Shown here: positions 37,386 to 38,277 of the stretch, one piece after another
Layout of the letters: each line of letters starts with the position of its first letter
Position numbering within the stretch: the stretch's first letter is position 1
Origin: Escherichia phage Turkey5
Length of the DNA: 64,000 nt
Direction: 5' to 3' (one strand)
Sequence record: PQ471516.1
Notes under the pieces: model-generated
The model's database searches: none
Seen by the model: the letters and a program-made list of their open reading frames with translations, nothing else
What the model was told of the DNA's origin: nothing
Position numbers and translations under genes: made by a program

Positions 37386-37754
37386 ATGAAACAGGTATTT
37401 CGTTATACGTATTACACTACAAAAAAGCAATTGGTTTCTTTATTTGGTTTCAAGACTTTGAAGACGAATGCATATAAAAGGGTATTCATTGGTATTGATG
37501 ATAATGGTTTCTTTCAATTACTGTCCAATGAAAGTGACAAGTCCTATACTATCCCTGACACTACTGTACTGGGAGAAGGTGAATTATTCCAGTTGAGTAC
37601 TGTATGGGATGATTCAGAATATGCATGTAATTTTGAGAATTTTGTTCAGTACCAGAAAATATTACGCACTGATTTTGAGAACTACCCAGTGAAAGTATTA
37701 AGTACTGGAAACGAACAATACAGACAAAAAGTGGTTGATCTTGATGCGTATTGA
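37386..37754 (+). CDS. family B paralog (short)
   Basis: motif GEGELFQLSTVW. Confidence 0.8.
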   Translation: MKQVFRYTYYTTKKQLVSLFGFKTLKTNAYKRVFIGIDDNGFFQLLSNESDKSYTIPDTTVLGEGELFQLSTVWDDSEYACNFENFVQYQKILRTDFENYPVKVLSTGNEQYRQKVVDLDAY

Positions 37755-38277
37755 AACAATAAGAACACACAGTGCAGAAACATTCTTTGATATTTGGCTT
37801 ACACAGGAGCTAATGACTATTGGTTCTATTCCTACGAAATTATTAAATTACACACATAACAATAATAATTCTGTACAACACCAATCAATTACAGATAGTA
37901 GTGGTGTGGTGTACATGCGTAGTAGTACTAATATTAATAATATAAAAAGTGCATACAATAATTCAAGTGGCTTCTTTACTTATAAATCTGATACTCCAGC
38001 AACATTCAGTACTATATTACAGGGGAATGTAATTTATCTTGACATGTTGAAACCACAAGAGTATACTGACGATGTAATTAATGAAATTAGTACTGCGACA
38101 GATCCGAATCTGGTAATTGCTTCTATGGTATTCTCTTACATGAGATACAGTGCTATGCCGTGTACGTGGGCTTCAGCACCTGATCTCAGGAGATATTTAA
38201 ATTCACTCCTAGGCACAAACTTCAGAGAACATTTAAATGCACGACGATTTATACAAAATAAACTACAGATTGAGTAG
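37735..38277 (+). CDS. hybrid protein: family B-like body with family A motif at the C-terminus
   Basis: EISTATDPNLVIASMVFSYMR aligns to the post-FQ region of B members; C-terminus RRYLNSLLGTNFREHLNARRFIQNKL is family A; alternative ATG 37744. Confidence 0.75.
   Translation: MILMRIETIRTHSAETFFDIWLTQELMTIGSIPTKLLNYTHNNNNSVQHQSITDSSGVVYMRSSTNINNIKSAYNNSSGFFTYKSDTPATFSTILQGNVIYLDMLKPQEYTDDVINEISTATDPNLVIASMVFSYMRYSAMPCTWASAPDLRRYLNSLLGTNFREHLNARRFIQNKLQIE

Follow-up and report, generated by a model that had tools for sequence, protein, structure and literature searches.

The window, a stretch of 64,000 nucleotides from Escherichia phage Turkey5, comes from an Asteriusvirus-like jumbo phage. Escherichia phage vB_EcoM_JNE01 (OR670491, 355 kb, genus Asteriusvirus) is ~97% identical to it, and no nucleotide similarity to phage records other than JNE01 was found over this region. 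The ORF list of the window contains two tandem same-strand paralog arrays:

20522-26083, with isolated copies at 29670-29864 and 35828-36037: family A ('LGTNYQE' small proteins), ~22 proteins of 64-101 aa, matching phrog_4148
25567-51826, same strand, a 26-kb run: family B (acidic 'FQ' proteins), ~47 proteins

The sole conserved motif of family A is L-G-T-x-x-Q-E, in which G, T, and Q are invariant. An AlphaFold model built with the paralog alignment (pLDDT 94, high confidence) predicts four helices (residues 6-15, 17-24, 30-44, and 51-80) and a bridge from residue 2 to residue 48. The bridge joins residue 2 to the G-T turn that separates helix 3 from helix 4, and the N-terminal strand pairs with this turn. 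A Foldseek search of the model against the PDB returned nothing at E <1. Family B has the core (S/T)EE-x-(Y/F)-FQ-x-S-(T/L)-(L/V), with a nearly invariant Phe-Gln. Its long forms (145-207 aa) belong to phrog_9317, 12674, and 19795 and its short forms (106-131 aa) to phrog_13866 and 34600; PHROG 15629 likewise covers short forms. The proteins are acidic (median net charge -9, pI about 4.9), and the FQ-family PHROGs are annotated as hypothetical proteins throughout. Several array members have lost or altered the FQ (44105, 46862, 48970), two carry FM instead (38584 and 39232), and an LQ variant is also present. Neither family has a Pfam match or a solved relative. PDB sequence searches with both family profiles gave compositional matches only (AMA1, interferon), and neither family was found described in a literature search.

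Genes of the two families are interleaved in one same-strand promoter-poor block, with A genes lying between B genes at 35828-36037, 29670-29864, 25322, and 25856. Upstream, positions 600-19500 of the window carry ~33 copies of a conserved early-promoter-like cassette, one per small gene. It consists of AAAAGTACTTGCA or TTGACA, 17 nt, TATAAT, and GTTTTACAT; a GC-rich hairpin (GGGGAGAAATGGTTCTCCCC) comes next, and then a ribosome-binding site. Translation of this cassette accounts for the ORF starts 'MFYIERGK...' that recur there. The cassette is essentially missing from 20-54 kb, the stretch occupied by the two arrays. Another small tandem family (~90-101 aa), the third in the window, lies at 57454-59170, its members having an N-terminal '(D/W)(I/L/Q)(E/Q)FTY(R/K)' motif in common.

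A conserved gene in a variable slot

The gene studied here lies between two short members of the FQ array:

37386..37754, plus strand: upstream flank, short FQ member (phrog_13866), one anchor of the variable slot
37735..38277, plus strand: studied ORF, 180 aa from a TTG
37744..38277, plus strand: studied CDS from the ATG start, 177 aa; the TTG at 37735 would add 3 residues
38237..38277, plus strand: out-of-frame overlap of the last 13 codons of the studied ORF with the start of the downstream gene
38237..38590, plus strand: downstream flank, short FQ member (phrog_34600), the other anchor of the slot

The 180-aa ORF and both of the strings that a sequence-only reading had quoted from it are present. 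The ATG at 37744 is the more likely start; it is the one used in all public gene calls, which give 177 aa. The CDS shares 11 nt with the gene upstream and 41 nt with the one downstream, and overlapping boundaries of this kind are typical of the array. In its 117-aa form, the downstream gene has an N-terminus homologous to those of other short FQ proteins.

The gene is real and is conserved in its clade. JNE01 has an intact orthologue (WOL23148.1) of equal length and with the same neighbours; amino-acid identity is 96%, and all seven differences fall in the N-terminal half. A collection of 15 billion proteins yielded 15 variants, all of 177 aa and at least 95% identical, which come from one isolate and several independent ENA and Logan assemblies. 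One is identical to the window protein, and the C-terminal 40 residues are invariant across all of them. The worry that the ORF might be an assembly chimera is refuted, as the same 177-aa ORF with the same junction recurs in the genome of the isolate JNE01 and in no fewer than five metagenome or run assemblies made independently.

Beyond this clade the gene was not detected. It forms a single 90% cluster among 5.8 billion clustered proteins, a phmmer search of 1.84 billion representatives found no relative, and tblastn against 50,697 phage records detected it in JNE01 alone. The two flanking genes were used to locate the slot by synteny in phage genomes, IMG/VR, and JGI metagenomes. Neither vB_Ec-M-J nor Salmonella phage SD-15_S21 has a gene in the slot, and the spacing of the flanking genes suggests that it is likewise empty in PBECO4. 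In 121Q and two metagenome contigs it is occupied by an unrelated 125-aa FQ protein, gp384, and only in the JNE01 clade does it hold the studied ORF. The site is thus a hypervariable slot between two short FQ genes. Two genes upstream of the studied ORF, the short FQ gene at 37034-37384 is missing from JNE01, which is a recent single-gene indel inside the array.

Sequence change in the gene is uneven. Compared with JNE01 and two metagenome haplotypes, its pN/pS is 0.50-1.11 (near 1 against the two haplotypes), while the pooled value for neighbouring array genes is 0.19-0.22. The counts behind the ratio are small (2.5-4.5 synonymous and 8.5-10.5 non-synonymous differences), so the raised pN/pS is only suggestive of relaxed or diversifying selection. 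None of the replacements lies beyond codon 100, and the 3' half shows almost no change, synonymous sites included. This nearly invariant half contains, at 38039-38067 of the window, an 11/12 match to the sigma-70 promoter consensus (TTGACA, 17 nt, TATACT); the number of sigma-70-like sites in the region is not above shuffle expectation.

Resemblance to the long FQ proteins

The sequence-only reading had described the product as having a family B layout from which the FQ core was lost. The features behind this likeness are:

37810..38151, plus strand: region aligned to the FQ-family (B) profile, residues 26-139 to HMM positions 12-120 of 155
38080..38085, plus strand: Asn-Glu at the position of the family B Phe-Gln core, on which the HMMER, hhalign, and MAFFT alignments agree

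The placement of NE under FQ is one residue off the register implied by the two strings of that reading. The gene shares its tandem array and its strand with the FQ genes, and its 177 aa fall within the 145-207 aa of the long forms. Its N-terminal helix, variable middle, core, amphipathic helix, proline, short strand, and terminal helix are colinear with theirs. The proline stands at +26 from the core, the same distance as in the hand-checked long protein 30639, and the tail after the FQ position is 65 aa long (range in long members: 39-67). The protein differs from the family in having Asn-Glu for Phe-Gln, in not being acidic, in its N/S/T-rich middle, in escaping PHROG detection, and in a pN/pS above that of its neighbours. 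Overall, its length and array location are typical of family B, and its charge is atypical (net charge -1, pI 6.4, N+S+T 31%). N, S, and T make up 43% of residues 30-100, a stretch for which the structure prediction has low confidence. The structure model of the whole protein (pLDDT 41) is too poor for a fold search.

Profile comparisons give a weak and variable signal. In the most favourable case, a 47-member array HMM with the ORF left out of the seed scored it at 15.0 bits (E 5e-4 among 387 window ORFs), making it the top non-member. None of 2000 shuffles reached this score, although shuffles of the ORF rise as high as 13.8 bits, and the score depends on four degenerate 'members' in the seed. 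The 12 in-window builds (three seed sets times four aligners) ranged from 0.3 to 15.0 bits (E 5e-4 to 19), with eight of them at 0.3-7.4 bits and global alignments at ~0-1 bit. An HMM of confident long members only gave 9.4-9.5 bits (E about 0.03), which 4-9 of 2000 shuffles reached (p about 0.002). An ungapped PSSM of the B core was not significant (p 0.12-0.34). With hhalign, 51 columns were aligned through the tail at P 0.009 but with a probability of 4%. MAFFT aligned the tail with B tails. An HMM of the B tails themselves scored -0.9 bits on the ORF tail, but these tails are too variable to be informative. No PHROG profile matched the whole protein or either half, and Pfam gave nothing above threshold.

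In a six-frame comparison the B signal appeared in the annotated frame alone (9.1 bits, with the remaining five at -0.5 or below), and no FQ core was found in any reading frame of the ORF. A frameshifted B pseudogene with a hidden FQ was accordingly rejected.

Two non-members of the array touch on these profiles. The 229-aa ORF at 60822-61511, outside the array, has a weak FQ-like core (EEHFQTLMF) and is the next-best non-member for several B profiles (~8-10 bits). At the array end, a 157-aa ORF without FQ (50365-50838) is the best non-self match of a profile of the studied ORF (8.7 bits, E 0.026). This match runs over the N/S/T-rich stretch and may be compositional.

The B-type layout with a lost FQ is therefore plausible on position, size, colinearity, and frame-specific signal, and its statistical significance is only borderline. 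The array position, the size, and the colinear alignment in which NE replaces FQ make it most likely that the gene descends from family B, although this is weakly demonstrated. The ORF could instead be an unrelated orphan, acquired or newly arisen in the slot and possibly decaying or untranslated, whose resemblances to both families are due to chance and AT-rich composition. Homologues outside its own cluster are absent, as are PHROG or Pfam matches above threshold; most B HMM builds and the core PSSM stay at noise, shuffled versions of the ORF come near the best B score, the middle is of low complexity in a poorly predicted model, and pN/pS approaches 1 against two haplotypes. An orphan is nevertheless unlikely: the B or A signal is confined to the annotated frame, few shuffles match the long-member profile score, and all 177 codons are intact in 16 variants with the last 40 residues invariant. 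The core helix and the proline after it are also placed and spaced as in the long B proteins.

An A-like motif at the end of the protein

The second claim of the sequence-only reading was that the protein ends with a clear family A signature:

38197-38232, plus strand: family-A-like motif LNSLLGTNFREH, 12-13 residues, with R in place of the Q of A members

The string shared with phrog_4148 proteins (121Q gp379 and gp380; window ORFs at 20522-26083) is L-x-x-L-L-G-T-N-aromatic-x-E-H. Both have it at a helix-turn-helix junction that precedes the stop codon by ~20-30 residues. In the low-confidence model of the studied ORF, the predicted junction consists of helix 146-156, the turn G157-T158, and helix 159-176. 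Several local comparisons single the motif out. Against a 14-column PSSM of the A motif it scored 16 bits and was the best non-family match in the six-frame window (next best: 9.0); one of 300 shuffled proteomes reached this score. An A HMM gave 4.3 bits on the 45-aa tail, a value reached by 3 of ~1000 shuffles. By Smith-Waterman alignment the tail scored at most 44 against A proteins, compared with 29.6 +/- 4.1 for shuffles (p 0.01), and its comparison with B tails gave p 0.18; the tail resembles family A more closely than it does any B tail. A reciprocal profile search had A members as four of its six top non-self matches, all on the tail. Local significance is p about 0.003-0.01, and chance is not a comfortable explanation for the motif.

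At the level of a domain the likeness ends. The whole-family A HMM scored the ORF at 3.7 bits (E 1.5, fifth among non-members, 12 columns aligned), which is noise, and hhalign aligned 13 columns. A windows of 7 columns (p 0.38), 27 columns (p 0.20), and 31 columns were non-significant or negative, and phrog_4148 did not match the tail. The invariant G and T are kept, the invariant Q is replaced by R, and the flanks of the motif are off the A profile. At 177 aa the protein is also far from the 57-95 aa of stand-alone A homologues. Of the A fold it contains no more than a shortened helix 3, the turn, and a helix 4 of 19 residues; it lacks helices 1 and 2 and the greater part of helix 3, and nothing was detectable in the ORF of the rest of the ~75-aa four-helix domain. 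LNSLLGTNFREH is thus real as a short, locally unusual motif and fails every domain-level A test, so the signature is present but not clear. In the family HMM alignments as a whole, PHROG profiles see neither half of the protein and in-window profiles are borderline for both, which brings the proposed fusion close to refutation.

The N-terminus of the ORF (RIETIRTHSAETFFDIWLT, 37744-37810) also agrees with that of 121Q gp379, an A member (L011 358-576), at 11 of 19 positions. An A gene carrying a B insertion was considered on these grounds and rejected. With E 0.03 among 16 proteins and 0.2 among those of the window, the match is probably due to chance; the window orthologue of gp379 (29670-29864) shows no such match, and the segment also resembles the N-terminus of a long B protein (IETI in 36511).

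The sequence-only reading had taken the gene as a natural fusion, a hint that the two families work together in a common complex or pathway. Such a gene would consist of a working B module and a working A module. A weakly B-like body and an A-like motif do occur within one ORF, and genes of both families are interleaved in the same block. The ORF does not, however, contain two recognisable full domains. No more than about 25 residues could derive from A, and the A fold needs four helices and a strand bridging the GT turn. Both hallmarks, FQ and the invariant Q, are mutated, pN/pS is raised, the domain-level HMM comparison failed, and the gene is limited to one narrow clade. All 19 database homologues of family A are stand-alone proteins, with no other fusion among them. 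Neither a fusion, a split form, nor an orthologue was found outside the JNE01 clade in phage genomes, IMG/VR, JGI metagenomes, or the 15-billion-protein collection, the slot elsewhere being empty or holding another gene. Because the tail is of normal length, A homologues do not exceed 95 aa, and there is no split or fused counterpart, the functional inference has no basis, and a working two-module fusion is highly improbable.

That reading had also offered recombination between neighbouring paralogs, and this survives as a minority explanation. An illegitimate recombination or deletion within the array would have attached the final ~25 codons of a neighbouring A gene to a long B gene, close to where the terminal helix of the latter ends. 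The part contributed by A would then be the end of helix 3, the LGT turn, and part of helix 4. The result would be a remnant of recombination and not a working fusion of two domains. The local significance of the motif speaks for such an event, and a hand alignment with o22282 extends into helix 3 (DLLRRDLELGVLLGTNYQE against DL-RRYLN--SLLGTNFRE). The alignment to the long-member B HMM stops at residue 157 and the A-like match begins at 155. The motif lies 21 aa from the stop, as in A genes, some of which are present between B genes, and the array has undergone recent indels such as that of 37034-37384. Against it, at the nucleotide level the ORF resembles none of the A genes more than the shared residues dictate, a finding that also led to the rejection of recent gene conversion by a member of family A. 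The ORF lacks the invariant Q, the register before and after the motif departs from the A consensus, and the wider windows are non-significant or negative. The tail is within the ordinary length of B tails, and the parental order, a B gene followed by an A gene, was not seen at the slot in any relative examined. The motif was moreover picked post hoc from a scan of the whole window. If such a joining did take place, the gene would be a snapshot of jumbo-phage arrays making new coding combinations from sub-domain pieces.

Origin of the gene and what it means

The preferred explanation, with a probability of about 0.5, is that the studied ORF is a divergent B-type paralog, degraded and specific to its lineage, in which the junction of the terminal helices looks like the A motif. 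It would be a lineage-restricted, rapidly diverging copy from the tandem acidic FQ array (family B, long subtype), occupying a slot whose content varies among related jumbo phages. It would have lost the Phe-Gln core and the acidity and would be evolving under relaxed or diversifying selection, and its C-terminal 65 residues would follow the usual B plan of a core helix, a short strand, and a terminal helix or helices. LLGTNFREH would represent a Gly C-cap followed by a Thr N-cap at the point where the last two helices join. We infer from the models that this cap is a generic structural solution, in which case a short generic motif would coincide with the one motif that family A conserves. That the gene descends from family B is likewise a matter of inference from position, size, and alignment. 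The proteins of these arrays, encoded in a promoter-poor block downstream of the early-promoter region, are probably non-essential accessory (host-interaction) proteins.

Little is learned about mechanism. The claimed functional link between A and B does not hold, and none of the competing explanations would reveal the function of either family. The case cautions that a locally significant match to a 12-residue motif can still fail every domain-level test. It also shows that the Asteriusvirus-like lineage contains very large tandem families, with ~47 FQ and ~22 LGT genes in roughly 31 kb. With gain and loss of genes at the level of single slots between close relatives, these arrays would be a reasonable system for studying the birth, decay, and possible shuffling of phage accessory genes.
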